This document shows, one piece after another, positions 3,324-25,655 of a stretch of DNA of 64,000 nucleotides (position 1 is the first letter of the stretch; each line of letters begins with the position of its first letter). The stretch is from an uncultured Acidimicrobiaceae bacterium. GTDB lineage: Bacteria; Actinomycetota; Acidimicrobiia; Acidimicrobiales; Bog-793. Location of the stretch: contig CAVRAT010000015.1 of assembly GCA_963719125.1 (NCBI GenBank), positions 77,782-141,781 on the forward strand. Direction: 5' to 3'. The translations under genes were made by a program, and so were the position numbers. Below the pieces are notes generated by a model. The model was given only the letters and a program-made list of their open reading frames with translations, searched no databases and had not been told where the DNA came from.

Positions 3324-3788
3324 TCAAGCGCGCCGTTGTCGGCGCGTCGGCGAAGTCTGCGTTCGGTCCGCTCCGATGGCCGGCTTTTCGTTCTGACGGT
3401 AGGACTCGCCTTCTATGACGAGCTCCCAGGCGGCGCTCTTCAGCCGGTCGACTGCGGACTGGGCTAACAGCGGATCGGCCATGAAGCCCAGCCATTCGCT
3501 TGGGTCACGGTTCGAGGTCAGCACCGTTGCTGCGCAGTGATGTCTTTCGACGCAGATCTCATAAATGTCGGCCGTCTCGACCGAATCGAGGTGCTGGAGC
3601 GCGAAGTCGTCGATCAGGAGGAGATCGACGCCGATGAGCTTTCGCATCTCGGCGTCGTAGGTCGCGTCGAGACGTGCCGCCTTCAATCTCTTGAGCAGGC
3701 GGTCGGCCCGTTCGAAGTGCACCCCGACGCGTCGCCGGCAGGCGATGTGGCCGAGTGCGGTGGCGAAGAAGGTCTTCCCGACGCCAGG
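3324..3788 (-). pseudogene. istB: istB (IS21 helper ATPase), C-terminal fragment from the Walker A motif onward
   Basis: ..(S)PGVGKTFFATALG..LLLIDDFALQ..TSNRDPSEW..DRL.. are typical IstB/AAA motifs. N-terminal homology is lost upstream of GVGKT. Confidence 0.85.
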
Positions 3789-3836
3789 CGAGACAGCGAC
3801 AGACTGCAACATCTTCGGCGGTTGTTGCCTTGCGAG

Positions 3837-4106
3837 GTGCGAGTCACCTCCGCTGTGCACCCGCTGTTTGGGCGTCTGGTTCCGGCGACCGGTTTCAAAC
3901 GCCGCGAGGGTGTCCTGCTGCTGGTGGTGATCCTGCCGGACGGCTCGCCGGGCACGATTCCGGCCGACGCGACGAACGCGTTGGGAGAGCCACCAGTCGA
4001 AGTCGGCACGTCGGTGCTCTCAGTGGAGGGAGTACGTCGACTCCAGGCGCTGATCAGCTCGCTGGAGCCCCGACGATCCCGCTCTCGACGCCAAAGACGC
4101 AAATAG
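3837..4106 (+). CDS. DUF5372-like small protein (putative accessory protein of the LSR element)
   Basis: GTG at 3837. VHPLFGRL..ILPDGSPGTIPADATN..VLSVEGVRRLQALISSL resembles the DUF5372 ORF at 23371-23706 (HPFRPWSGREF..GVKHSLPLSWTDA..FRVDDLIVLADLV). Same position upstream of an LSR gene. Confidence 0.5.
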   Translation: MRVTSAVHPLFGRLVPATGFKRREGVLLLVVILPDGSPGTIPADATNALGEPPVEVGTSVLSVEGVRRLQALISSLEPRRSRSRRQRRK

Positions 4107-4206
4107 GCTCGCCTGACCCTGTACGCGCCAACGAACCGGGAGGTGAGCCTCTTTGCGAAGGCTCAGAATAGCCGCGCCCACTCAGCTGACCCTGGTCATA
4201 CCCGGG

Positions 4207-4341
4207 ATGGCTCCAACCTCGCAGCAATGTTGGTCGTTGCTGCCAGATACCAACCAAGCAGCGGTGCTCTCGCTGCTCGCCCGGATGATCGCCCGTGGCG
4301 TAGTTCTCGAGGAAGAGGGAGCTGCTGATGACGATCGTTGA
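4207..4341 (+). CDS. Possible small ORF overlapping the recombinase start
   Basis: ATG at 4207. ..WSLLPDTNQAAVLSLLARMIARGVV.. ends 14 nt into the recombinase gene. An analogous small ORF sits at 24415-24618 at the second LSR locus. Weak support. Confidence 0.25.
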   Translation: MAPTSQQCWSLLPDTNQAAVLSLLARMIARGVVLEEEGAADDDR

Positions 4342-6559
4342 GTCCTCCTCCAAGGTGAGCGCCAGTCACCTCGGTCGTGACGCCTACGTATACGTACGTC
4401 AGTCGACCCTCACTCAGGTGCGCGAGCACACCGAGAGCCTTGAGCGCCAGTACGAGCTCGCATTTCGCGCCCAGGCCCTTGGGTGGGCACCCCGTCAAGT
4501 GATCGTGATCGACGACGACCTCGGTCGTTCGGGCGCCAACGCGTCAGCACGGGAAGGGTTCAAGAACCTTGTCGCCCATGTCGGACTCGCCCGTGTCGGG
4601 ATCATCTTCGGGATAGAGGTGTCACGCCTAGCCCGCAACAACGCCGACTGGTATCAGCTGTTGGACCTCTGTGCCGTGACCGACACCCTCATCGCTGACG
4701 GGGACGGCATCTATCATCCGGCCGACTTCAACGACCGGCTCGTACTTGGGCTCAAAGGCACGATGTCGGAGGCGGAGCTGCATCTCATCCGCCATCGCCT
4801 GACCGCCGGGCTTCGACACAAGGCTGCCAAAGGCGAGCTGCGTCAAGGTGTGCCGGTCGGGTTCGTCTATGACGAGGCAGATCGGGTCGTCCTCGACCCC
4901 GACGAAGCGGTCATCGAGGCGATCGCAACGGTGTTCCGTCGTTTTGACGAGCTCGGGTCAGCGCGCCAGGTGATGTTGTCGATGCAAGGAGACGGTCTTC
5001 TCATTCCTCGCCGGCCGACCGGAGCCAGGCGGATCTCCTTCGCGACGGCAACATATCCGGCGATCCACGATTTCTTGACCAACCCGAACTACGCCGGTGC
5101 GTTCGTGTTCGGCCGAACCAGGACTGAGAAGCGCCTCGACGCTGAAGGGCGCTTAGTCGCTCGCGCACGGTTCCTGCCACGGGACGAATGGGCAGTCCTG
5201 ATTCCCGACCATCACCCCGGCTTTGTGTCCTGGGAGCGTTACGAGCAGATCCAAGACCAATTGCGGGCAAACTGGCGGGCCCCTCGTGGACATGGCGGCG
5301 GTGCGGTGCGAGAAGGCACGGCCTTGTTGCAAGGCCGACTTCGCTGTGGGCGCTGTGGGCGGATGATGCAGACCGGCTACTCAGGCGCCCAGGGCAACTG
5401 TCCCAGGTACGTCTGCGGGCGAGCACGCCAGCTCTATGGCAGCGAATCGATGTGCCAGAGCTTCGGAGGTCGAAAACTCGAAGCCCGCGTCCTCGACGAG
5501 GTGTTCGCTGTGCTCGAGCCCGCCGCGCTCGCGGCCACAGCTCTGGCGCTAAACGACGCTGAGTCCGCACATCGCCAGCGGCTGCACGCCTTTGAACTCG
5601 CGGTGGAGCGAGCACGATTCGAGGCAGAGCGCGCACATCGTCAGTTCGACGCTGTCGAACCGGAGAACCGCCTTGTGGGCCGAACTCTGGAACACGCCTT
5701 CGAGGAGGCGCTCAGCGCCCAACGTCATGCCGAAGCCGACTTGGCAACTCAGCGTGCCCGTCAGCCCACGCGTCTGAACGACGACGAACTGGCTTGGCTG
5801 ACTCGGGCGGGGGCGGATCTGCGCGCAGTGTTCCACGCATCGACAACCACTTGGCGGGAGCGCAAGCAGCTTCTGCGGGCCATCATCGCCGAGGTCGTCG
5901 TCGCTTGTCGCGGAGAAGACCATCAGGCCGATGTCACGATCGTCTGGGAAGGTGGCGCCTCCACGAGCTTCGTCCACGAGCTCAACAAACGTGGCGGCCA
6001 CTACCGAGCAACCGACGAGGACACCGTCGAGCTCGTTCGTCGCCTTGCTCAGCGTTATGACGACAGGACGATCGCGGCCGTGTTGTCCAAGCAGGGACGT
6101 CGGACCGGAACCGGTCTTACATTCACGAAGACGAGAGTCGCCAGTCTGCGCTTTTCGAGAGGCATCCCGGCCTTCCAGCCAAAGCTGGATGTCACAGCAT
6201 CGGACCATGATGTCGAGGTGGTCTCGATCACCAAGGCCGAGCAGATCCTCAAAGTCAACCGGACCACGATCTATCGCTGGATGCGCGAAGGCTTCATCGA
6301 AGGCGAGCAACTCACCTGCGACGGACCATGGCACATTCGCATCAACGACGAGGTTCGCAAGCGAATCGTGCCCGAGGTGCCCGAAGGCTGGCTCAATCTC
6401 GATCAAGCAGCCCGAGCCCTTGGGATCGCCCGCCAGACCGTGTTGCACAAGGTCCAACGCGGTGAGCTCAAGGCAGTCCACGTCAACCGCGGGAAGAGAA
6501 AAGGCCTGCGTATCCAGGTCGAATCCCCGGTCGCTGGACTGTTCGACACACCGTCATGA
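4328..6559 (+). CDS. Large serine recombinase (resolvase domain + recombinase domain + zinc ribbon + coiled coil + two C-terminal HTH modules)
   Basis: AYVYVRQSTLTQ (catalytic Ser), ..VSRLARNNADW.., LRCGRCGRMM..CPRYVC (zinc ribbon). The C-terminus has TIYRWMREG and TVLHKVQRGEL, which are excisionase/MerR-like HTHs. Confidence 0.9.
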   Translation: MTIVESSSKVSASHLGRDAYVYVRQSTLTQVREHTESLERQYELAFRAQALGWAPRQVIVIDDDLGRSGANASAREGFKNLVAHVGLARVGIIFGIEVSRLARNNADWYQLLDLCAVTDTLIADGDGIYHPADFNDRLVLGLKGTMSEAELHLIRHRLTAGLRHKAAKGELRQGVPVGFVYDEADRVVLDPDEAVIEAIATVFRRFDELGSARQVMLSMQGDGLLIPRRPTGARRISFATATYPAIHDFLTNPNYAGAFVFGRTRTEKRLDAEGRLVARARFLPRDEWAVLIPDHHPGFVSWERYEQIQDQLRANWRAPRGHGGGAVREGTALLQGRLRCGRCGRMMQTGYSGAQGNCPRYVCGRARQLYGSESMCQSFGGRKLEARVLDEVFAVLEPAALAATALALNDAESAHRQRLHAFELAVERARFEAERAHRQFDAVEPENRLVGRTLEHAFEEALSAQRHAEADLATQRARQPTRLNDDELAWLTRAGADLRAVFHASTTTWRERKQLLRAIIAEVVVACRGEDHQADVTIVWEGGASTSFVHELNKRGGHYRATDEDTVELVRRLAQRYDDRTIAAVLSKQGRRTGTGLTFTKTRVASLRFSRGIPAFQPKLDVTASDHDVEVVSITKAEQILKVNRTTIYRWMREGFIEGEQLTCDGPWHIRINDEVRKRIVPEVPEGWLNLDQAARALGIARQTVLHKVQRGELKAVHVNRGKRKGLRIQVESPVAGLFDTPS

Positions 6560-6587
6560 AGGGAGCGCGCAGTGTCAACCACATTCG

Positions 6588-6929
6588 ACTGGGCCCAAGA
6601 ATAAAGGCGTTGCGCGCTTGGTCGACAAAGCGCAGCGACACGAGCTCTGACCACACCGCCCGGTCGTAGGTGATCTTGGCGGTGTCGTCCCAGGCCTCGA
6701 GTGTCATCGTCGGGTCCAGCGTGGCCGCCCGAGCACGGCGACCGGCCGAGTCGCCGTCACGGCGCTGCACCTCGTCGGAGAAGAGCTGCTCCAAGAACTC
6801 CATGTGGGTGAGCTCGTGGCTGCGAGCGAGCGCCAGGCGCTCGGGCAAGGTGTCGAGGAGGCGGCCGAGCTTCAGTGATCTCATGAGCGACTTGAGCTCT
6901 GGAGAGACGCTCGGTGTGGGCGGCGTCAT
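6588..6929 (-). pseudogene. istB: istB N-terminal fragment
   Basis: ..LKLGRLLDTLPERLALARSHELTHMEFLEQLFSDEVQRRD..LEAWDD..SLRFVDQARNAFILGPS then homology stops. The ATG at 6929 overlaps the istA stop (ATGA), as in IS21 operons. Confidence 0.85.
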
Positions 6930-7403
6930 CGTCCCGCCTCCTTTGTCGTCGCGAACTCCGACGGGTCACGGGAAAAGCGCCCCTGTATGACGACGAGATG
7001 GGCAGGACTGGCCTCTTGTCCGAGGTCCTCGCGAGCGCGTTCGAGCATGCGGCTCACGAGGTTCACGTCGATCGCCTCGGCATCAAGTGCCCGGCGACAG
7101 GCCAGCTCGACGCGGCTCGGGCCCCACTTTTTCACGAGGCCCAAGAGCCGGTAGACCTGGCGCATCTTGGTCCACGGCAAAGGCGTGTCCAACAGCGCCT
7201 CGGCGTAGCGCCCGATCGCCTCGCCGTGCTGGGCCGCCAGGCGCCTCAACGCGTCGACGTCTCGTGTGGCGTAGATCTCCTTGCCGGTCGGGTAGTCCGC
7301 CGGGTCGGTCGAGCGCTGACCCGGGGCTTTTCGCGGATGGACCTTTATGAGCTCTCCGCGGAAGTAGAACTTCACCGTCTTTGAGTCACGCCTGGCCTTT
7401 AAG
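6926..7403 (-). pseudogene. istA: istA (IS21 transposase), C-terminal fragment
   Basis: ..KARRDSKTVKFYFRGELIKVHPR..LPWTKMRQVYRLLGLVKKWG..ACRRAL.. is a typical IstA C-terminus. It begins abruptly at the IS1634-type insertion. Confidence 0.85.
7398..7403. repeat. Left copy of 6-bp TSD (TTTAAG) of the IS1634-family element
   Basis: TTTAAG directly abuts both IRs (second copy 11427-11432). Removing one copy plus the IS restores istA in frame. Confidence 0.7.
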
Positions 7404-7478: not shown

Positions 7479-8313
7479 CTACAGGAGGCGGAGGGGGACG
7501 TTTGCGCCGATGAGCTCGAAGGCCCGTCGCTGGACCTCGGTTAGCTGGGCGAGTTGCTCGAAGGTCTGATCTGTGCCCGGCACCGTACAGGTGTTGCGGG
7601 TGAGGGTCCCGAGATGGTCGAGGAGTCCCTGGAAGCTCTGCACGGGAAGCCCCTCCTCATTGCGCTTTCTTGCTGCCTTGCGGGCTGCAGAGGCCGAGCG
7701 TTCCGCTTTTGCCACCGGGTCGTCGCGAAACGGTGGTGCCTCGTCGGCGAAAGTGAGCGGGGCAAGGGCCCTGCGCAGGTGCCAGACGAGATGAGCAGCG
7801 AGCAGGCAGAGCAAGGCATGGGCGCGCACCCGGTCGGCGAGGCGGTGGCGGATGGGCCGGATCTCGATGTCGAGGGACTTCATGGAACGAAAGTCCCTTT
7901 CGATGCCGGCGAGCGACTTGTAGCTGCGCACGACGTCGGCCGCAGAGAGCCGCTTCGGCGCACAGCTCGTCCGCAGTACATAGATGCCGTCTAAGGCTGC
8001 CTCAGCGGCGATCGCCTCTTGTCTTCTCGAGAAGGAGAAGCTGCCCTCTTCGATGAACAGCTCGAAGTGCTTGGCCATCTTGTAGCGGTTGACGACCCGC
8101 CCCAGGCGAAGCCCGATCTTGGCCCGGTCCGAGAGGCGGCCCGCCACAACGGCGTCTTTTACCTTTGCGAGCTCGAGCTCGGTCGCAGACAAGAGCGCTT
8201 CGCGCTTTCTCGCCCGCTCGGTCGCAAGAGCCGGGTTGCGACAGCACACGAGGCGCTCGCCGGGGTAGTCCGGGTGGGTGATCTCGGCGAAGTTCACCTC
8301 GTCGAACAAAGAC
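7479..8313 (-). pseudogene. IS1634-family transposase, C-terminal fragment
   Basis: SLFDEVNFAEITHPDYPGERLVCCRNP..YVLRTS..VVRSYKSLAGIERDFRSMKS..IRPIRHRL.DRVRAH..LC: a typical DDE IS1634/IS4 C-terminal region. Confidence 0.8.
8306..8313. repeat. Left copy of 8-bp TSD (ACAAAGAC) of the ISL3 element
   Basis: ACAAAGAC abuts both IRs (second copy 10394-10401). 8 bp is the usual ISL3 duplication size. Confidence 0.8.
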
Positions 8314-8398
8314 GGCTCTCCTGACTCTTCCGTGGGTGGGAAGGTCGAACAGGTGTGCGATGTGAGTCCGACACGCGATTGTCGAGCAAGATGGGACG

Positions 8399-9040
8399 GT
8401 GGAGAACACCGCCTCGCGCTGGGAGCCTGAGGACGACGACGAGTACGAGTCGGCGAGGGCCGAGCTGAAGGAGCGCTTTGCAACCTGGGCCGCGAACGCG
8501 GGTGTCGCGATCGATCACGATGTGCCCGAGGGTCTGCTCCACTACAAGTGGGCATACGTCGATGGCCATCTCACCCGTTGGACGCGTCGCGACCTGAGCG
8601 AGATCTATCTCGAGCTCTACCCGGCCAAGGTCATGGCCGATCCCGACGAACTCGACGAGGTCCTCGCCGAGGCGAGGGCGTTTCTCACCTTTCTCTCTGC
8701 GACCGGACTGCTCGAGGAGGAGAGCGAGTCTGCCGAGGTCCTCATCGACCACCTCGACCAGATCGCAGGGCGATTCCGGGCGAACATGGCCGATCAGTCG
8801 CGCTACAGCTTTGGCAAGCGCCTGTGGACCGAGGCCGCAGCCGAAGGCGTACGGCCCGACGACCCCGCTGCGGTCGAGGCCTTCATGGCGCGCTTTAACG
8901 CCCGGCCCCGAGCCGAGCGGGACGCGATCCTCGGAGACGGTGTGAAGCCGGGGAGCCGCCGCGCACAGACGGGCCGGTTCACTCCTCCGGGAACCCCGCC
9001 CGGACCCGGTTCAGGAAAGCGGCGCAAGCGCCGGAGATGA
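8399..9040 (+). CDS. Hypothetical acidic protein with basic C-terminal tail (passenger gene of the ISL3 element)
   Basis: 213-aa ORF with high GC3 and protein-like composition. It lies inside the IS between the left IR and the 3' end of the transposase gene (convergent, 30-nt overlap). No family recognised. Confidence 0.55.
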   Translation: MENTASRWEPEDDDEYESARAELKERFATWAANAGVAIDHDVPEGLLHYKWAYVDGHLTRWTRRDLSEIYLELYPAKVMADPDELDEVLAEARAFLTFLSATGLLEEESESAEVLIDHLDQIAGRFRANMADQSRYSFGKRLWTEAAAEGVRPDDPAAVEAFMARFNARPRAERDAILGDGVKPGSRRAQTGRFTPPGTPPGPGSGKRRKRRR

Positions 9041-10279
9041 ACGGCCGGGCAGCGGGGGGCAGTAGCCGCCGCGGTCCAAGAGTGCGAGGGCGATCAGGTG
9101 CTCGGGATCGCGGAACCCGAACGCCATGCGGTGGAGCACGCGCAGCTTCGTGTTCGTCGACTCGACGAGCGCGTTCGAGACCTTGTGCAGCATCGCCGCC
9201 TCGATGCCCGGGAGGTGGCGGCGGATCTTCCGGCCGAGCTCGACGAACGCGGTGATGCGGCAACGCTGTGCCCAGGCGAGCCACTCGTCGAGCATCGTGA
9301 GCGAAAGCACGCCCTTTCGCCTGATCGCGAGACGGAGCTGCTCTTTCATCAGGTAGGCCCGATAGAGGGGCGAGTTCGTCTTCGCGATGGTCGCGAGCTT
9401 CCCCCGCTGGCGACGCGTCAGGTCCTCTGGGTTCTTCCAGAGGGCGAAACGCGCCCCCTTCAGCTCGCGCGCGTGCTCGGTCATGCCGGATCGGCGAGCG
9501 GAGTTCCAAACGTCGCGTCGCACCTCGTCGAGGGCGTCGGTCGCCCACTGAACGACATGAAACGCGTCGATGCATAGCGTCGCGTTCAAGCAGCGCTCTC
9601 GCACGACATCCGCGATCCACTCCGCTCCGTCCGCGGAGACGACGGTGATCCCGGCACAGCGTTCTTCGCCGACAAGGTCGAAGAAGCCCCGGAGCGTCTT
9701 CTTGTCCCGACCGACCGCCGCCCAGACGAGGCGACCCGAATCGTGATCCACCACCACCGTCAAGTACCGGTGGCGGCGCTTGTAGCTGATCTCGTCGATG
9801 CCGATGCGGCGCAGACCACAGAAGGGGTCGTGCGCCGCGCGTCCATCCGCGACGACGCGGGCGATGACCGAGCCGACCGTGCGCCAGGCGATGCGCATCA
9901 AGTCAGAGACAGCGGACTTCGGGGTGTGGGTGACGAGCCAGGCGACCTGGTCGTCGAAGTGCCGGGTGTGGCCCGCGCCGTGCCGCGCCCAGGGGACCTG
10001 GGCGACCGTCGGGCCGTGGGCGGGGCAGTTCACTCGCGGCGAGTCCGCCTCCAGGTAGCACTGGACGGTCCCGAGGTCGAGCGCTCGCCATCGTCGACGA
10101 CCCTCGCCCTGGTCATAGCCGGGAGCGCGCACCCCGCAGCGCCCACAACGACGCTTTGTCGACTTGCGCGGCCGGACGTGCGCGACCACGGCGTTCAGCT
10201 CCTCGTCGACCTCGACCGACTCGATCACCGTCGCCTTGTCGACACCGACCATCCGCCGCCACACATCGGCACCGAACAA
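9011..10279 (-). CDS. ISL3-family transposase
   Basis: zf-ISL3 signature ..RRCGRCG..GYD..RRWRALDLG.., then ..IGIDEISYKRRHRYLTVVVD.. and a DDE_Tnp_ISL3-like C-terminus. Confidence 0.9.
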   Translation of the reverse strand: MFGADVWRRMVGVDKATVIESVEVDEELNAVVAHVRPRKSTKRRCGRCGVRAPGYDQGEGRRRWRALDLGTVQCYLEADSPRVNCPAHGPTVAQVPWARHGAGHTRHFDDQVAWLVTHTPKSAVSDLMRIAWRTVGSVIARVVADGRAAHDPFCGLRRIGIDEISYKRRHRYLTVVVDHDSGRLVWAAVGRDKKTLRGFFDLVGEERCAGITVVSADGAEWIADVVRERCLNATLCIDAFHVVQWATDALDEVRRDVWNSARRSGMTEHARELKGARFALWKNPEDLTRRQRGKLATIAKTNSPLYRAYLMKEQLRLAIRRKGVLSLTMLDEWLAWAQRCRITAFVELGRKIRRHLPGIEAAMLHKVSNALVESTNTKLRVLHRMAFGFRDPEHLIALALLDRGGYCPPLPGRSSPALAPLS

Positions 10280-12969: not shown

Positions 12970-13919
12970 CGTCTGGCCTCACTCCACACCGGTTCGGTGA
13001 AGGCCTCGAAGCGCCTGTTCGCCTCGTCGATCAGCTGCGGCGTGATCGTGAGATAGACGGCGGTCGAGTCAGGGCTGACGTGGCCCATTAAGGTCGAGAG
13101 CCGGTACAGGCGGCTCTGCGGGTCCACCCCCTCCCGATACCAGCGCAACAGGCAGCCCACAGCAAAGGAATGACGGAGGCTGTGGAGCACGGGCGGGGAC
13201 ACGCCGTCGGGAACCGGAAGGCCGAGCGTCATGACGAGGCGGTGGAAGACCTGGCTCGCGCTCTGGGGATGGACGCTTCGCCGTCCGTCGAAGCTGAACA
13301 GCGGGTCGTCGGCGGTCCCATGGCGCCGTTCGACCTGGCAGGCGAGAACCTCACCGACGCGCGGACCGTGGGGAACGAGGCGGCTCTTGCCGAACTTGCC
13401 GCCGCGCACGACGAGCAGCTGACGGTCCGCGTCGACGTCGCTGATGAGGAGACTGCATGCCTCGCCGGCTCGCAGCCCGAGGCCGTAGCAGAGGGCGAAG
13501 ATGGCGTGGTAGGTGGACCCGCGGCCTCTCGCCCGCGCGTTGTCTGGAAGTGCCGCTGCGGCTTTGAGCAGCCGTCGCGCCTGGATGGTGTCGAAGAGGA
13601 ACGGCACACGCTGATCGGTCTCCCGTCGGCGGGTCCTTCGCAGCGGGGAGGCCACTAGGCGCTGTTGGCTGACCGCCCAGTCGAGGAAGCAGCCGAGGAC
13701 GTTAACGAGATGGTTGAAGCTGCGCGCTCGGGTCCGCGGTCGCGACGCGACGAAAACGTCGAGGAAGGCGGAGGTGAGCTCGTCCAGCTCGGTCACGCCG
13801 TGCTGATCGCAAAAGGCGAGAAACAGGTGAAGCGTCGCCTCCTCGGTCATGTACTTGCGACCGAGGGCGCGCTTGTGGGCAAGGAAGTCGCTGACGGTGG
13901 AGGCGAGCGCGGCGCTCAT
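12966..13919 (-). CDS. ritB: Tyrosine recombinase, second gene of the trio
   Basis: ..GLRAGEAC.. / HSLRHSFAV / MGHVSPDSTAVYL. ATGA overlaps with both neighbours. Confidence 0.9.
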   Translation of the reverse strand: MSAALASTVSDFLAHKRALGRKYMTEEATLHLFLAFCDQHGVTELDELTSAFLDVFVASRPRTRARSFNHLVNVLGCFLDWAVSQQRLVASPLRRTRRRETDQRVPFLFDTIQARRLLKAAAALPDNARARGRGSTYHAIFALCYGLGLRAGEACSLLISDVDADRQLLVVRGGKFGKSRLVPHGPRVGEVLACQVERRHGTADDPLFSFDGRRSVHPQSASQVFHRLVMTLGLPVPDGVSPPVLHSLRHSFAVGCLLRWYREGVDPQSRLYRLSTLMGHVSPDSTAVYLTITPQLIDEANRRFEAFTEPVWSEARR

Positions 13920-15184
13920 GCGAGCACCGCCTCGCCGTCACCGAGCGCGACCTCGCGGAGGCGCTCGATGGCGACCTTGGCGTAAACCTCGGTGGAGCGC
14001 GCCGAGCGATGCCCGATGAAGTCGCCGATCGTCTTGAGCGGGAAGTCCGCGTCGACGAGGCGCTGGACGGCCGAGTGACGCAGCGTGTGCGACCCCGGCC
14101 GGGGAACCTCGACGCCGGCACGCAGCAGGTAGGCGCGGCACAGCGACGACACCGCGGCCGCCCCGATCGGGCGCCGGGGCGCGACGGCGCGGAAGAAGAC
14201 GTGGCGATCGGACGTCGTCGGACGGCCATGCCGGAGGTAGTCGAGGATCGCCTCGCCGACCACGAGCGAGAGCGGGAACGCCGTGGAGTGACCGGCCTTG
14301 CGCTCGGGGACCCGGAGTCGGTCGTTCTTCCAGTCGATGTCGTCCAAACTGAGTGCCGCGACCTCCCGACCCCGCAGCCCGTAGGTGACGAGCAGGAGCA
14401 AGATCGCGTAGTCCCGCCGTCCCGCCTGGGTGCGACGGTCAACGCTGGCGAGCACCCGGTTGACGTCTTCCCAGGAGATCGAGCGGGGCACGTTCGAGAG
14501 CCGATACACCTGGGGCCACCCAACGGCGTTGGCGAGATCGGCATCGAGAACACCCTCGCGATGGGCGTAGCGCAAGAACACCCGGAGCACCCCGGCGCTG
14601 TCACGAACGGTGCTCTTCGCCAGCCCCGAGCCGGCGCGTTCGACGATGTAGGCGCTGAGGATCACTGGCGAAAGCTCGCCGATCGACTGGAGGCCGATCC
14701 GAGCGAGGTAGGCCTCGAAGCGGTCGAGGTGGTGGCGGTAGCCGTAGATCGAGGCGGGGCGCAGCCCGCGCTCTTCGACCAGGTAGTCGAAGAAGCCAGG
14801 AACGACGTCGACGAAGGGCTGGGGGTGAGGGCTCCGACCGGTTGGCTCGAAGCCGGGGAGCACCACCGAGAGCATCTGCTCGATCGGACCTCTCACCTCC
14901 TTCTCCATCGGTCTTGTTGAGCGGGTCCGTCGGTGATGGTCGGCGACGCGGTTGGTGATGAACGCGTCGACGTGGGCAGGCAACTCGCCGATAGTGTCCG
15001 CCCCACGCGCCCGACCGAACTCAGCAAAGGCGAAGACGATCGGCACCCGGCGCCAGACGCTCTTCGTGCTGAAGCCTTCTTCGACGAGCCAGGTGACGTA
15101 GGCCTCGATCTCGGCCGCGATCCACGAACCGCGCAGGCGATCGATAGTCGCCGGCTTGATGAAGTACTCCTCCAACATGGACAA
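13916..15184 (-). CDS. ritA: Tyrosine recombinase, first gene of the trio
   Basis: 422 aa. ..GLRGREV.. / HTLRHSAVQ / IGHRSARSTEVYA. The long N-terminal extension is typical of the first RIT gene. Confidence 0.9.
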   Translation of the reverse strand: MSMLEEYFIKPATIDRLRGSWIAAEIEAYVTWLVEEGFSTKSVWRRVPIVFAFAEFGRARGADTIGELPAHVDAFITNRVADHHRRTRSTRPMEKEVRGPIEQMLSVVLPGFEPTGRSPHPQPFVDVVPGFFDYLVEERGLRPASIYGYRHHLDRFEAYLARIGLQSIGELSPVILSAYIVERAGSGLAKSTVRDSAGVLRVFLRYAHREGVLDADLANAVGWPQVYRLSNVPRSISWEDVNRVLASVDRRTQAGRRDYAILLLLVTYGLRGREVAALSLDDIDWKNDRLRVPERKAGHSTAFPLSLVVGEAILDYLRHGRPTTSDRHVFFRAVAPRRPIGAAAVSSLCRAYLLRAGVEVPRPGSHTLRHSAVQRLVDADFPLKTIGDFIGHRSARSTEVYAKVAIERLREVALGDGEAVLA

Positions 15185-23132: not shown

Positions 23133-23415
23133 TCAGGCGGCTTCGGTGGGCTCGACGCTCACGCGGTAACCGAGCCAGGTACTGAACGGCCCCGCCGCGG
23201 TCGTACTCGAACTCGACGCGTTTCGTGCCCGAGGCGCTAAAGCAAGGCTCTCATGGCAGCGGATACGGGCCTGGATGGAGGTCTTCTCATCGGCGGAGAC
23301 CACGTAGTCCGCTTTGCCGAGGGGCCTTCCCTCCCACTCCCGGGCGTAGAGGTCGAGCACCCGGGCGGCCTTGGTTCCAAAGCCACGGTCGCGGGGAAAG
23401 AAGTCGTCAACTACG
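23133..23415 (-). pseudogene. IS630-family transposase internal fragment
   Basis: ..SFPRDRGFGTKAARVLDLYAREWEGRPLGKADYVVSADEKTSIQAR.. then decays. The motif (D/S)ADEKTSIQA is typical of IS630/Tc1-like transposases. Confidence 0.55.
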
Positions 23416-23706
23416 TCTGATGGAGACGGTCAGGCCAGAAGTGTCCGGGCGACCCACCCGTTTCGTCCGTGGTCAGGTCGGGAGTTCCTGTTCCTCTCCG
23501 TCGGTCACAACTGGGGCGAGGACAGGGTGTTCTTCCTCGACGATGACGGCGTCAAACACTCGTTGCCCCTTAGCTGGACAGACGCGGCGTCTGTTGACGT
23601 GTTCGTCGCTCTCGCCGCCGGGCGCAGCCCGTTTCGCGTCGACGACCTCATCGTGCTGGCGGATCTGGTGGCGCGACTGTCACGAGCTGCCGATGAAGAC
23701 GTGTAA
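23371..23706 (+). CDS. DUF5372-family small protein (start uncertain)
   Basis: ..THPFRPWSGREFLFLSVGHNWGEDRVFFLDDDGVKHSLPLSWTDAASVDVFVALAAGRSPFRVDDLIVLADLV. By recollection this matches DUF5372 (Y4bD/Y4pK-like). The 5' part overlaps the IS630 remnant, so the real start is probably downstream or lost. Confidence 0.6.
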   Translation: MVPKPRSRGKKSSTTSDGDGQARSVRATHPFRPWSGREFLFLSVGHNWGEDRVFFLDDDGVKHSLPLSWTDAASVDVFVALAAGRSPFRVDDLIVLADLVARLSRAADEDV

Positions 23707-23888
23707 GGCGAATTATGCCGGTGATGTAAGGTGAATTACGCCGAGGCAATCGAAGTGTCCACCAGTATCTTCGGTGTAGATCCGCAGATTGCCCAGCATG
23801 AGGGCATTAATAGAGAACTGATGCCTTGACAGCGTCCGATAAGGAGGCATAATGATACTTACACCAATGTGGTTCGGAAGGAGAGCCG

Positions 23889-24356
23889 GTGGCCAAGAAG
23901 GCAAGTGACCCGAAGATCGAGGCGCTTCAGGCGCAGCGGTGCTTGAACCCCCATCCCGAAGCGGTGATCGACGAAGCGTTCTCGGCCTCGGAGTTCCTCG
24001 ATCCCCGGGACCTCGTGCAGGTGAAGTACGAGATGGTGCGCCGGGTGCGGGTCGAGGGCGACACGGTCGTCTCCGCGGCCGCCGAGTTCGGGTTCTCCCG
24101 GCCCTCGTTCTACGAAGCGGCGGCGGCATTGGACCGTGGTGGCCTGCCCGCCCTTGTCCCGGCCCGTCCCGGGCCCCGCCGGGCGCACAAGTTGACTGAC
24201 GAGATCGTCGCCTTCGCAAGGGCCGCCACCGAGGAGGACCCGACGCTTCGCGCAAGGGATCTCGTCGTGAGGGTCGAGGAGCGCTTCTCGCTCAGCGTGC
24301 ATCCACGTTCGATCGAGCGGGCACTGGCCCGCCAGCCCAAAAGTCCCGGCCGGTGA
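23889..24356 (+). CDS. Helix-turn-helix DNA-binding protein (mobile-element associated)
   Basis: ..FLDPRDLVQVKYEMVRRVRVEGDTVVSAAAEFGFSRPSFYEAAAALDRGGLPALVP.RPGPRRAHKL: an HTH followed by a winged-helix-like region. Sits between the DUF5372 and LSR genes. Confidence 0.7.
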   Translation: MAKKASDPKIEALQAQRCLNPHPEAVIDEAFSASEFLDPRDLVQVKYEMVRRVRVEGDTVVSAAAEFGFSRPSFYEAAAALDRGGLPALVPARPGPRRAHKLTDEIVAFARAATEEDPTLRARDLVVRVEERFSLSVHPRSIERALARQPKSPGR

Positions 24357-24414
24357 ACCGGCTCGCCAAGACGGCGCGGATCTGGCCCGCCGCTACGAGG
24401 AGCTGCGGCGGCGT

Positions 24415-24618
24415 GTGCTTTGCGGGGAGATCGACGGACACCGGCTCGGTCTCTCTGTGCTGTTACGCCAAGGCGTCACGGCGTGGATGCGAGCCGCTTG
24501 CAGCATCCCCACAGCCCCCGCTCCGGCACCCCCAGCACGCCCAGACGGCGACACCGAGCCCTTGGTGGCTGTGCTCGTCTCCCTGTGGCGCTTGCATGTC
24601 ATCGAGTCTGAGCGATGA
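24415..24618 (+). CDS. Possible small ORF overlapping the recombinase start
   Basis: The frame is open from upstream (..ARRYEELRRRVLCGEIDGHRLGLSVLLRQGVTAWMRA..) and ends 4 nt into the LSR fragment. Same position as 4207-4341. No canonical start found upstream of 24415. Confidence 0.25.
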   Translation: MLCGEIDGHRLGLSVLLRQGVTAWMRAACSIPTAPAPAPPARPDGDTEPLVAVLVSLWRLHVIESER

Positions 24619-25140
24619 GCGTCGAAGTCGCCCACAAGGTCAGCGCGGCACACCTGTCGCGCACGGCCTACCTCTATGTACGGCAGAGCACGCTTCGCCA
24701 GGTAATGGAGAACACCGAGTCCGCCGCCCGTCAGTACGCGCTGCGCCAGCGGGCGGTCGCCCTGGGCTGGGCCGTCGACCAGATCGTGGTGATCGACACC
24801 GACCAAGGCCAGTCGGGCGCGTCTGCGGCCGACCGCGAAGGGTTCTGTCGCCTCGTCGCGGAAGTCGGCATGGACCGGGTGGGGATAGTGCCCGGCCTCG
24901 AGGTGTCCCGGCTCACCCGCAACAACGCAGACTGGCACCGCCTGCTCGAGCTGTGCTCGCTCTCTTCCACCTTGATCTGCGACGAAGACGGGCTCTATGA
25001 CCCGTGCGACTTCAACGACCGGCTCCTTTTGGGGCTGAAGGGCACGATGTCAGAAGCAGAGCTCCACTTCATCCCGCGCGCCTGCGGGGCGGCATCTTGT
25101 CCAAGGCGCGGCGCGGTGAGCTCAAGGTGCCGCTCCCTCG
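24615..25140 (+). pseudogene. Large serine recombinase, N-terminal (resolvase-domain) fragment, frameshifted and truncated
   Basis: AYLYVRQSTLRQ..VSRLTRNNADWHRLLELC..LLLGLKGTMSEAELHFI parallels 4328-6559. It continues in another frame (ARLRGGILSKARRGELKVPLP) and then stops. Confidence 0.8.
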
Positions 25141-25145
25141 CGCTC

Positions 25146-25510
25146 GGATGACGCATCTCGAGAAAGCTGAACAGCCCCGAGATCGCCGCGAGGCGGCGAT
25201 TGATCGTGCTCGGCGCGAACCCGAGGGCGCGGCCGCTCGCCAACGGGATCACGTCGTCGTGCTGGCCGCTGCGTCGCGTCATGCGGCATGCCGCGAGGTA
25301 GCGCAGCAAGGCGTCGGTGTCGACCGCTTTGAAGCGCAGCCCTTCCGTGCGCAGCCACCGGGTGAAGTGCAAGAGGTCGAAGGCATAGGCGCGCACGATG
25401 GCGGGCGAGTAGTTCCGGTCGGCGAGATAGGCGAGGTAGTCGTTGCACAGCTTGAGGTCCGGCGCCGAACTGTCTCCGGCGAGTCGCCAGCGCTCGCCGC
25501 CTCCGGATTC
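25146..25510 (-). pseudogene. Tyrosine recombinase N-terminal (SAM-like domain) fragment
   Basis: ..CNDYLAYLADRNYSPAIVRAYAFDLLHFTRWLRTEGLRFKAVDTDALLRYLAACR..STINRRLAAISGLFSFLEMR. No catalytic domain follows. Confidence 0.55.
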
Positions 25511-25655
25511 ACAGCGCTCCTTCCATGACACATGAGAAACGCAGCATGAGCCGGTGGAGCGCAAGAGGGAAAGCCCGTGGATTCTTCGAATGCCATTGTC
25601 CCCAAAATCCACAGGATCCACAGGCAACTACTACTACAGACGGATCATTGACCGG

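Follow-up and report, generated by a model that had tools for sequence, protein, structure and literature searches.

Why should istB, the helper ATPase gene of an IS21-family insertion sequence, carry a gene for a large serine recombinase (LSR) in its middle? This question is raised by a 64,000-nucleotide stretch of DNA from an uncultured Acidimicrobiaceae bacterium (contig CAVRAT010000015.1, positions 77,782 to 141,781; hereafter the window), in which istB is split by a segment of three genes, orf1, orf2 and the LSR gene. LSRs are known as integrases of phages and of integrative and conjugative elements (ICEs), and as transposases of a few cargo-bearing clostridial transposons. In this study, we found that the segment is likely to be an autonomous, site-specific LSR mini-transposon of insertion sequence (IS) size, which targets the DNA coding for the Walker A motif (G-x-x-G-x-G-K-T/S) of IstB. 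Relatives occupy the same istB spot in many actinobacterial genomes, and the evidence therefore supports a site-specific parasite of another mobile element rather than a remnant of a phage or genomic island.

An insert in the Walker A codons of istB

A first-pass annotation of the window had placed a minimal element of about 2.8 kb at 3789-6590, in the P-loop codons of istB. Comparison with uninterrupted istB genes leads to the same picture: ~3789-6587 is a discrete 2.80-kb insert within the istB of an IS21-family unit, both of its flanks are colinear with uninterrupted istB at 95-96% DNA identity, and the insertion point lies inside the Walker A codons (GPVGVGKT). The two halves of the host protein are recognized by the Pfam IstB_IS21 profile, one in the minus-strand open reading frame (ORF) at 6483-6929 (profile positions 3-103, E 1.8e-12) and the other in the minus-strand ORF at 3324-3860 (profile positions 100-235, E 2.5e-29). 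Since the former ends with ...NAFILGP and the latter resumes with ...GVGKTFF, the break falls inside the Walker A loop.

Intact sites came from a scan of metagenome contigs, in which the query was the two IstB halves joined with one residue between them; no intact IS21 copy spanning the P-loop was found in the fetched loci. The scan yielded 80 uninterrupted IstB relatives of 63-96% protein identity, colinear with the joined halves and mostly 245-252 codons long, and all 80 of them contain GPVGVGKT. In the closest one, L092, homology to the right flank (95.9% DNA identity) stops at base 938 and homology to the left flank (94.9%) resumes at base 943. An insertion thus accounts for the 2.80 kb between them, with its ends known to within 4 nt, and the limits first proposed hold to this margin; the putative crossover dinucleotides lie at these limits (Table 1).

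The interrupted gene shows the IstB_IS21 domain and the Walker A motif of its family, in the two halves as well as in the intact relatives. The gene upstream of istB carries rve and Mu-transpos_C_2 in relatives. In the window it is truncated, homology to L092 ending inside it at ~7401, and the ORF at 6926-7375 has no Pfam match; the window IS21 copy is thus decayed. The right junction has one extra C in the run 6591-6593 (GGGCC[C]AGTCG, as compared to intact GGGCCAGTCG in L095), which shifts the frame of the istB 5' half and may be either a real frameshift or a homopolymer assembly error. The base composition of the insert is not distinguishable from that of the surrounding window, and a search of the window revealed no second copy of IS21 and no terminal repeats of more than 40 nt at the insert.

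Table 1. Features of the istB insert, its host IS21 copy and the second LSR locus (window coordinates)
Feature	Position	Strand	Basis
IS21-family remnant, 3' end, downstream of istB stop codon	3213-3323	-	DNA homology to L092 down to ~3213
istB 3' half, second Gly of Walker A (GVGKT...) to stop codon	3324-3786	-	Pfam IstB_IS21; L092 DNA
Putative crossover dinucleotide, left junction (attR), CC in istB sense	3787-3788		attP dyad axis; variation in relatives
Element left end (P arm of attP), GACAGCGACAGACTGCAAC at 3792-3810	3789-3821		conserved in nearly all relatives
orf1, 94 aa, DUF5372-like	3822-4106	+	family alignment, hhalign
orf2, 62 aa, conserved small protein	4153-4341	+	tblastn, related loci
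Large serine recombinase, 743 aa, intact	4328-6559	+	Pfam, NCBIfam
Element right end (P' arm of attP), GCGCAGTGTCAA at 6567-6578	6564-6587		conserved in nearly all relatives
Putative crossover dinucleotide, right junction (attL), GT in istB sense (host type)	6588-6589		GT(C/T) at this codon in 80/80 intact relatives
istB 5' half (Met ... NAFILGP), extra C in 6591-6593	6590-6929	-	Pfam IstB_IS21; L092 DNA
Remnant of gene upstream of istB, presumed istA 3' part, cut at ~7401	6926-7401	-	L092 upstream-flank homology
Second, truncated sister-family element	23371-25151	+	Pfam
True DUF5372 gene of second locus	23371-23706	+	Pfam, 73.2 bits, E 1.8e-20, above gathering cut-off
HTH_32 protein of second locus	23889-24356	+	Pfam
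LSR N-terminal 178 aa of second locus	24615-25151	+	Pfam

The recombinase and its two companion genes

As read in the first pass, the largest gene encodes a serine recombinase with a zinc ribbon and two additional C-terminal helix-turn-helix (HTH) modules. Pfam places Resolvase at residues 19-170 (E 9.9e-18), Recombinase at 195-314 (E 1.3e-14) and, following it, Zn_ribbon_recom at 333-392 (E 1.1e-7), with a coiled-coil included in the zinc ribbon region. The catalytic motif YVYVRQS26T, with the nucleophilic serine of the LSR motif Y-x-R-x-S-(T/S), can be read directly from the translation. The C-terminal extension contains two HTH_17/excisionase-type modules at about residues 630-655 and 688-729 (HTH_17, E 2.5e-11), the second of which passes the cut-off of TIGR01764 ('excise') at residues 691-723, and Pfam found no DUF4368 in the protein. 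Homologs number thousands. The best 120 are 71-100% identical and mostly 738-749 aa long (a few are shorter, and lengths reach 776 aa), and nearly all of them have the same four Pfam domains. Many relatives lie on short contigs of 2.4-5 kb, which would be expected if assemblies break at a repeat. Judged by domain order and catalytic motif, the enzyme is a bona fide LSR. However, it belongs to none of the NCBIfam equivalog families that it resembles, with scores (bits/cut-off) of 82.6/375 for XisF, 43.7/700 for CcrA, 20.9/900 for CcrB, 14/900 for CcrC and 21/110 for IS607. Scores so far below the cut-offs rule out that it is an ortholog of XisF, CcrA/B/C or IS607 TnpA.

The frame of orf1 is open from further upstream, and its start was set at TTG 3822 by alignment of the family, which comprises 184 homologs, typically of 88-95 aa, with 62% mean column identity and the motif LPCEVRVTS..HPLFGR...LPDGSPGTIP..ATD. 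The first-pass annotation had called the product DUF5372-like. As a direct assignment to DUF5372 this failed: the window protein does not match Pfam DUF5372 (PF17342) even at E=10 and stays below its gathering cut-off of 25 bits, has no NCBIfam match, and has no BLASTP match to the true DUF5372 protein of the window. A comparison of a profile with the single sequence is marginal (E 0.07). As a remote relationship, the label fared better. With hhalign, the orf1 family and an alignment of 40 DUF5372 proteins match in a single register over 79 columns (probability 87.4%, E 3.7e-6). The orf1 ortholog of a Pseudomonas element (47%-identical; L181) scores 26.8 bits against Pfam DUF5372, above the cut-off, with 22.8 and 18.1 bits for the orthologs in L183 and L182. 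Like Pfam DUF5372 proteins, orf1 has the same length, the same position (first gene, co-oriented with and upstream of the LSR gene) and the pattern V.VTHP..G...DG...P..TD...L..L, but it lacks the invariant W and the GRxxFR motif of that family. Because of the profile-profile match and the Pseudomonas ortholog above the Pfam cut-off, the label 'DUF5372-like' is justified, and sequence comparison makes orf1 a remote DUF5372 homolog on a divergent branch, below Pfam-level membership.

The AlphaFold model of orf1 (predicted local distance difference test, pLDDT, 82) predicts a small four-stranded beta-barrel with a C-terminal helix. A fold search of the PDB returned only weak SH3/Tudor/KOW-like matches (best E 8.7e-3, template modelling score, TM, 0.42) and yielded no functional lead. 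The closest orf1 relatives (93% identity; L089-L091) adjoin three tyrosine-recombinase genes with a short IstB fragment between, and this locus is another nest of recombinase-based elements.

The first-pass count of three genes stands, but the small ORF that it regarded as doubtful is orf2, a conserved gene of nearly every relative. By tblastn, orf2 is found at the same position in nearly all related loci, with a start codon that varies among TTG, ATG and GTG at a fixed site and with the conserved motif W..LPE..R..VL.LLARLIARGVL, and it is called as a gene of 63-65 aa in L001-L007. It has no Pfam or NCBIfam family match. Its end overlaps the LSR start by 14 nt, which suggests that translation of orf2 and the LSR may be coupled.

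The association of DUF5372 genes with LSR genes, which the first-pass annotation had put forward from the two loci of the window, was found again elsewhere. The DUF5372 gene of the second LSR locus is a true member of the family (E 1.8e-20), and DUF5372 genes from elsewhere lie just upstream of, and co-oriented with, an LSR gene whenever the contig is long enough, in a handful of lineages rather than as a genome-wide statistic. Full-text literature searches, with subscription journals outside their coverage, returned nothing relevant on DUF5372 or y4bD/y4pK. From position, we hypothesize that orf1 and/or orf2 are partners of the LSR. A directionality (excision) factor or a synapsis or target cofactor would be most plausible; any specific role is proposed with much lower confidence than the mini-transposon itself.

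Relatives, mobility and the site of crossover

A scan of species-representative genomes, one genome per species, gave 220 LSR matches, of which the best 80 (60-84% LSR identity) were kept for locus analyses. Their hosts are Acidimicrobiia, Pseudonocardiales, Propionibacteriales, Micromonosporaceae, Mycobacterium metagenome-assembled genomes (MAGs) and two cultured Mycobacterium interjectum strains, with up to five element copies per genome. The M. interjectum ortholog is found at LQPB01000055.1, 33798-42026, and at NZ_LT546237.1, 3502805-3511030. At all seven places with two close LSR relatives, the order is the IstB 3' half on the minus strand, orf1, orf2, the LSR gene, the IstB 5' half on the minus strand and the rve/Mu-transposase gene. 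In nearly all loci with enough flank, tblastn with the IstB halves found the C-half immediately left and the N-half immediately right, the N-half ending at the P-loop G-(P/D/N) and the C-half beginning with G-x-G-K. Pfam IstB_IS21 is present on 46 of 52 distinct left flanks (88%), from profile position ~102, and the LSR gene is always antisense to istB. Identities among the flanking IstB proteins extend down to 30% (30-100%), which means that many IS21 lineages have been hit.

A few copies lie off this target, though still at P-loops or at sequence resembling them. One splits the P-loop of an AAA_30 protein between IGAAG and TGKT (L067), two split the P-loop of AAA_22 (ExeA/TniB-like) ATPases between ITG(D/E)VG and AGK (L080, L082), one is in lgt (L060) and one in a GMC oxidoreductase gene (L061); L033 and L076 lie in other sequence. 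Mostly IstB and few off-target copies is the pattern to be expected of a site-specific recombinase that prefers one attB and uses pseudo-sites now and then.

The distance between the end motifs is ~2.77-2.79 kb in the closest relatives and about 2.76-2.83 kb in most loci, with 3.0-4.2 kb in a few. These longer relatives, together with the fact that LSRs are most often phage or ICE integrases, would fit the stump of a larger prophage or integrative element that lost its cargo and left its integrase next to attL and attR. Such an origin is extremely unlikely, considering that more than 60 loci have the same ~2.8-kb unit, complete with its three genes and both conserved ends, that only 28 nt separate the LSR stop codon from the right crossover and 33 nt the left crossover from the start of orf1, leaving no room for lost cargo, and that phage or conjugation genes were found in no inspected copy.

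Within one genome, copies are 99.8-100% identical over ~2.81 kb, while the 400 nt on each side are only 40-92% identical. In the MAG CAWIBX01, five copies are 100% identical over 2809 bp with flanks of 40-92% identity, and identical inserts in differing flanks were also found for pairs in five other assemblies, including M. interjectum. With identical inserts in divergent flanks, the element is therefore to be regarded as mobile. The element thus has three genes, no cargo, conserved ends and 99.8-100% identical copies in different flanks, and is, as known from sequence only, an insertion sequence in the broad sense; the first-pass idea of an IS-sized LSR element without phage or ICE cargo extends in this way from one locus to a recurring ~2.8-kb unit. 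As a separate observation, L004 has a left flank of one IS21 type and a right flank of another around the same identical insert as L002 and L003, which suggests that copies of the element have recombined or that the assembly is chimeric.

The insert interrupts the reading frame of its host at a place where exact excision would leave the Walker A motif whole, its orientation is constant, and the best NCBIfam match of its LSR is XisF. These features recall a programmed gene-interruption switch, in which an LSR cassette in istB would keep IS21 silent until precise excision restores the gene, as for XisF on the fdxN element of Anabaena and SpoIVCA on the skin element of Bacillus, where excision of the LSR element can likewise rebuild a split coding sequence. 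However, a switch of this kind is improbable here. One and the same genome has identical copies in unrelated IS21 lineages, and other copies occur in lgt, in a GMC oxidoreductase gene and in ATPase genes other than istB; the XisF score does not come near family level, and many of the targeted IS21 copies, including that of the window, are decayed. Furthermore, no host programme that a switch might serve is obvious, IS21 being a parasite in its own right. The known switch elements also differ in being tens of kb long, single-copy and excised in development, with XisF requiring XisH and XisI.

Both ends of the mini-transposon are common to nearly all copies, reading ...GACAGCGACAGACTGCAAC... on the left and ...GCGCAGTGT(C/T)AA... 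on the right (plus strand). They are imperfectly inverted (...GCAGTCTGTCGC... and ...TT(G/A)ACACTGCGC), and attP reconstructed in the istB sense reads GCAGTCTGTCGC-NNNN-[14 nt]-TT(G/A)ACACTGC; with the ends joined, it would be ...GCAGTCTGTCGCTGTC-(C/T)CG-NN-CG(G/A)...TTGACACTGCGC.... The GCAGT/ACTGC motifs and the inner (C/T)CG-NN-CG(G/A) core set the dyad axis within the 14-nt block, between its positions 4 and 5, which correspond to the third Walker A codon at its first two bases, and the host site in G-P-x-G alleles has a matching CCG-NN-CGG core. In the Mycobacterium lineage, positions 1-3 are constant at the left junction and positions 6-14 at the right junction, and positions 4-5 vary at both, the two junctions agreeing in 7 of 10 copies (TC, GT, CC). 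The crossover was placed at positions 4-5 from the dyad axis and these Mycobacterium copies, a placement with an acknowledged misfit, and thus most probably falls within the third Walker A codon, on its first two bases. Setting it by overlap with host sequence was rejected, as positions 6-7, 7-8 and 2-3 each fit some loci and fail others. The comparison of istB alleles, from which attB, attL, attR and the crossover dinucleotide were all expected in the first pass, delivered only part of this: the junctions are precise, fixed within 4 nt and free of duplication beyond the shared core, but attL and attR disagree in the putative dinucleotide at 26 of 67 loci, and attP itself was not detected.

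Exchange of attP and attB half-sites with a 2-nt stagger is established for the LSRs phiC31, Bxb1 and TnpX. By analogy, the LSR of the istB element would bind two sites, an attP of ~40-50 bp created where the element's ends meet in an excised circle, and an attB with the P-loop codons at its centre; it would cut both with a 2-nt stagger and swap half-sites to give attL and attR without target duplication. The crossover would lie on the third Walker A codon, where attP and attB share the (C/T)CG-NN-CG(G/A) core, and the two fused HTH_17 modules may add DNA contacts beyond those of the recombinase and zinc-ribbon domains. The choice of target would be advantageous in that these catalytic-motif codons are conserved across very different IS21 lineages, and that IS21 is multi-copy, dispensable and itself horizontally mobile; the site would therefore be abundant, safe for the host and portable. 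The cost of insertion, a split istB, would be borne by IS21.

Several observations weigh against this picture. Canonical LSRs require identical central dinucleotides, yet the two junctions share the dinucleotide in only 41 of 67 loci, with one base differing in 17 and both bases in 9. The window copy itself is discordant, with GT (host type) on the right and CC on the left, and the five 100%-identical copies in one MAG differ in this dinucleotide (L015 and L073 versus L016, L017 and L079). Possible causes are mismatch-tolerant exchange followed by heteroduplex segregation, a second register, or assembly errors near CCGG; most loci are metagenome assemblies, many of them long-read, in which such errors could occur. 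If mismatch tolerance is real, a variable central dinucleotide would be new LSR biochemistry. Neither an excised circle nor a joined-ends attP was found in 186 fetched loci or in IMG/VR, so excision and re-integration are inferred only. The window copy lies inside a decayed IS21, with a truncated upstream gene and a 1-nt junction indel, and may itself be stranded. A promoter and terminator scan of 3600-6800 found nothing, in particular no sigma-70-like promoter, and the orf1 start is only 33 nt from the crossover; this bears on expression in the integrated state, although the scan was of E. coli type and weakly informative for an actinobacterium of 63% G+C.

Finally, L010 and L011, both on one chromosome (OY970155.1), share 99.5-100% identical flanks in addition to the insert, indicating from their sequences that duplication at least sometimes takes in the entire composite of IS21 and insert. 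IS21 depends on IstB, and other copies could provide it in trans. The LSR unit might thus be a passenger that entered one IS21 long ago and has since spread only through transposition of its carrier. This, however, is very unlikely and largely refuted, since the other genome pairs tested combine an insert of 99.8-100% identity with flanks of 40-92%; moreover, the flanking IstB proteins span 30-100% identity and some copies are outside IS21 altogether.

Known systems, the second locus and the wider family

The lifestyle of the site-specific mini-transposon is closest to that of the clostridial transposons with TnpX (Tn4451/Tn4453) and TndX (Tn5397) and, for the targeting of a repeat, to that of phiRv1. 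In the TnpX/TndX transposons, the LSR drives excision to a circle and then re-integration; these elements carry cargo (catP, conjugation genes) and use many loosely defined sites around a GA dinucleotide. Like them, the istB element is a non-phage element with an LSR as its sole recombination enzyme and without target duplication. Unlike them, it is cargo-free, has a long specific target in the IstB P-loop codons, carries two HTH_17 modules instead of DUF4368, and has the orf1/orf2 pair. In the excerpted text of Durrant et al. 2022 (PMC10083194), TndX-like transposases belong to a 'multi-targeting' LSR clade in which 63% of LSRs have DUF4368, and the istB P-loop is not mentioned as a target. 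By comparison of domains and flanks, the LSR of the istB element does not fit this clade, as it has no DUF4368 and 88% of its distinct flanks are one gene family at one position.

The phiRv1 integrase of M. tuberculosis (Rv1586c) is an LSR whose attB lies inside the repetitive REP13E12, and its Xis (Rv1584c), with an excisionase-type HTH, sets directionality. It resembles the istB element as an actinobacterial LSR that targets a multi-copy element, the istB-element LSR having such HTH_17 modules fused to it. However, phiRv1 is prophage-like and ~10 kb long, has a separate recombination directionality factor protein, and is not known to target the catalytic-motif codons of a transposition gene. 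The IS607 family is also IS-sized and has a serine recombinase with a MerR/excisionase-type HTH (HTH_17), and NCBIfam transpos_IS607 gives a weak local match to the LSR HTH at residues 693-726 (21 bits against a cut-off of 110). In contrast, IS607 TnpA is ~200 aa long with an N-terminal HTH, lacks recombinase and zinc-ribbon domains, has very low target specificity and often occurs with TnpB, whereas the istB-element enzyme, an LSR of 743 aa, has its HTHs at the C-terminus and its target is specific. Searches of full-text literature found no description of an LSR in istB, of an LSR with IS21, of a group II intron with a serine recombinase, or of such an element; subscription journals lay outside their coverage, so a prior description is possible.

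The second LSR locus of the window is a truncated member of a sister family (Table 1). Its LSR is clearly homologous to the first one and is cut at ~25151. In relatives (L172-L180, L184), the complete unit is ~3.3 kb long and consists of DUF5372, an HTH gene, a small ORF and a 692-aa LSR. In L184, the unit interrupts an IS3-type transposase gene and is flanked by rve_3/rve_2 at one end and by rve and HTH_Tnp_1 at the other; it abuts rve_3 fragments in four other loci. In most aligned copies, though not in that of the window, the left junction lies just before a conserved ...ANAYAERF... motif. Another DUF5372 lineage has DUF5372, a 321-aa gene and an LSR on a 3.5-kb contig.

Full-length homologs of the first LSR, of 44-48% identity, were also found on plasmids of rhizobia, Pseudomonas and Mycetohabitans, in up to 15 places per record. 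In the three inspected (L181-L183; NZ_CP005961.1, NZ_CP147709.1 and NZ_CP080530.1), the order orf1-orf2-LSR is kept, and the gene split is in each case not istB but that of a group II intron-type reverse transcriptase, broken at RVT_1 profile position ~80. Within this limited sample of sequences, small LSR elements that land in genes of other mobile elements, often in DNA coding for a conserved motif, appear to be a recurring theme. We tentatively propose, as one joint claim with somewhat less than an even chance of holding in all its parts, that DUF5372-associated LSRs form a widespread superfamily of cargo-free mini-transposons that are hyperparasites of mobile elements; that its branches home to DNA of catalytic or near-catalytic motifs (IstB Walker A, IS3 rve/DDE, a group II intron reverse transcriptase motif); that the DUF5372-like protein and/or orf2 is a directionality or target cofactor; and that non-identical central dinucleotides are tolerated, so that P-loop alleles differing at the third codon can be used.

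An LSR element of IS size that has no cargo and a long, specific target within a gene of another mobile element would represent a distinct and apparently undescribed lifestyle, and the orphan family DUF5372 gains a concrete setting as the first gene of LSR mini-elements. Catalytic-motif codons would serve as a conserved and portable attB, a strategy that seems to recur for group II intron reverse transcriptases and IS3 transposases. As each insertion knocks out the IS21 helper ATPase, the elements may restrain IS21 in Actinomycetota, including mycobacteria. Compact three-gene systems with deducible natural attP/attB pairs could also serve genome engineering.

Both loci of the window adjoin other mobile-element sequences. 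Left of the second locus, a minus-strand fragment at 23133-23360 is like an IS630-type transposase, with the motif DEKTSIQA recognized by eye and no Pfam match, and the end of the second-locus LSR adjoins the N-terminus of a tyrosine recombinase (Phage_int_SAM_1; 24995-25627, minus strand). Next to the truncated IS21, a 358-aa ORF at 7479-8555 has a weak DDE_Tnp_1 match, and two ORFs of equal length (422 aa) at 9011-10279 and 13916-15184 are candidate transposase-like genes; the neighbourhood of the truncated IS21 looks like an IS graveyard.

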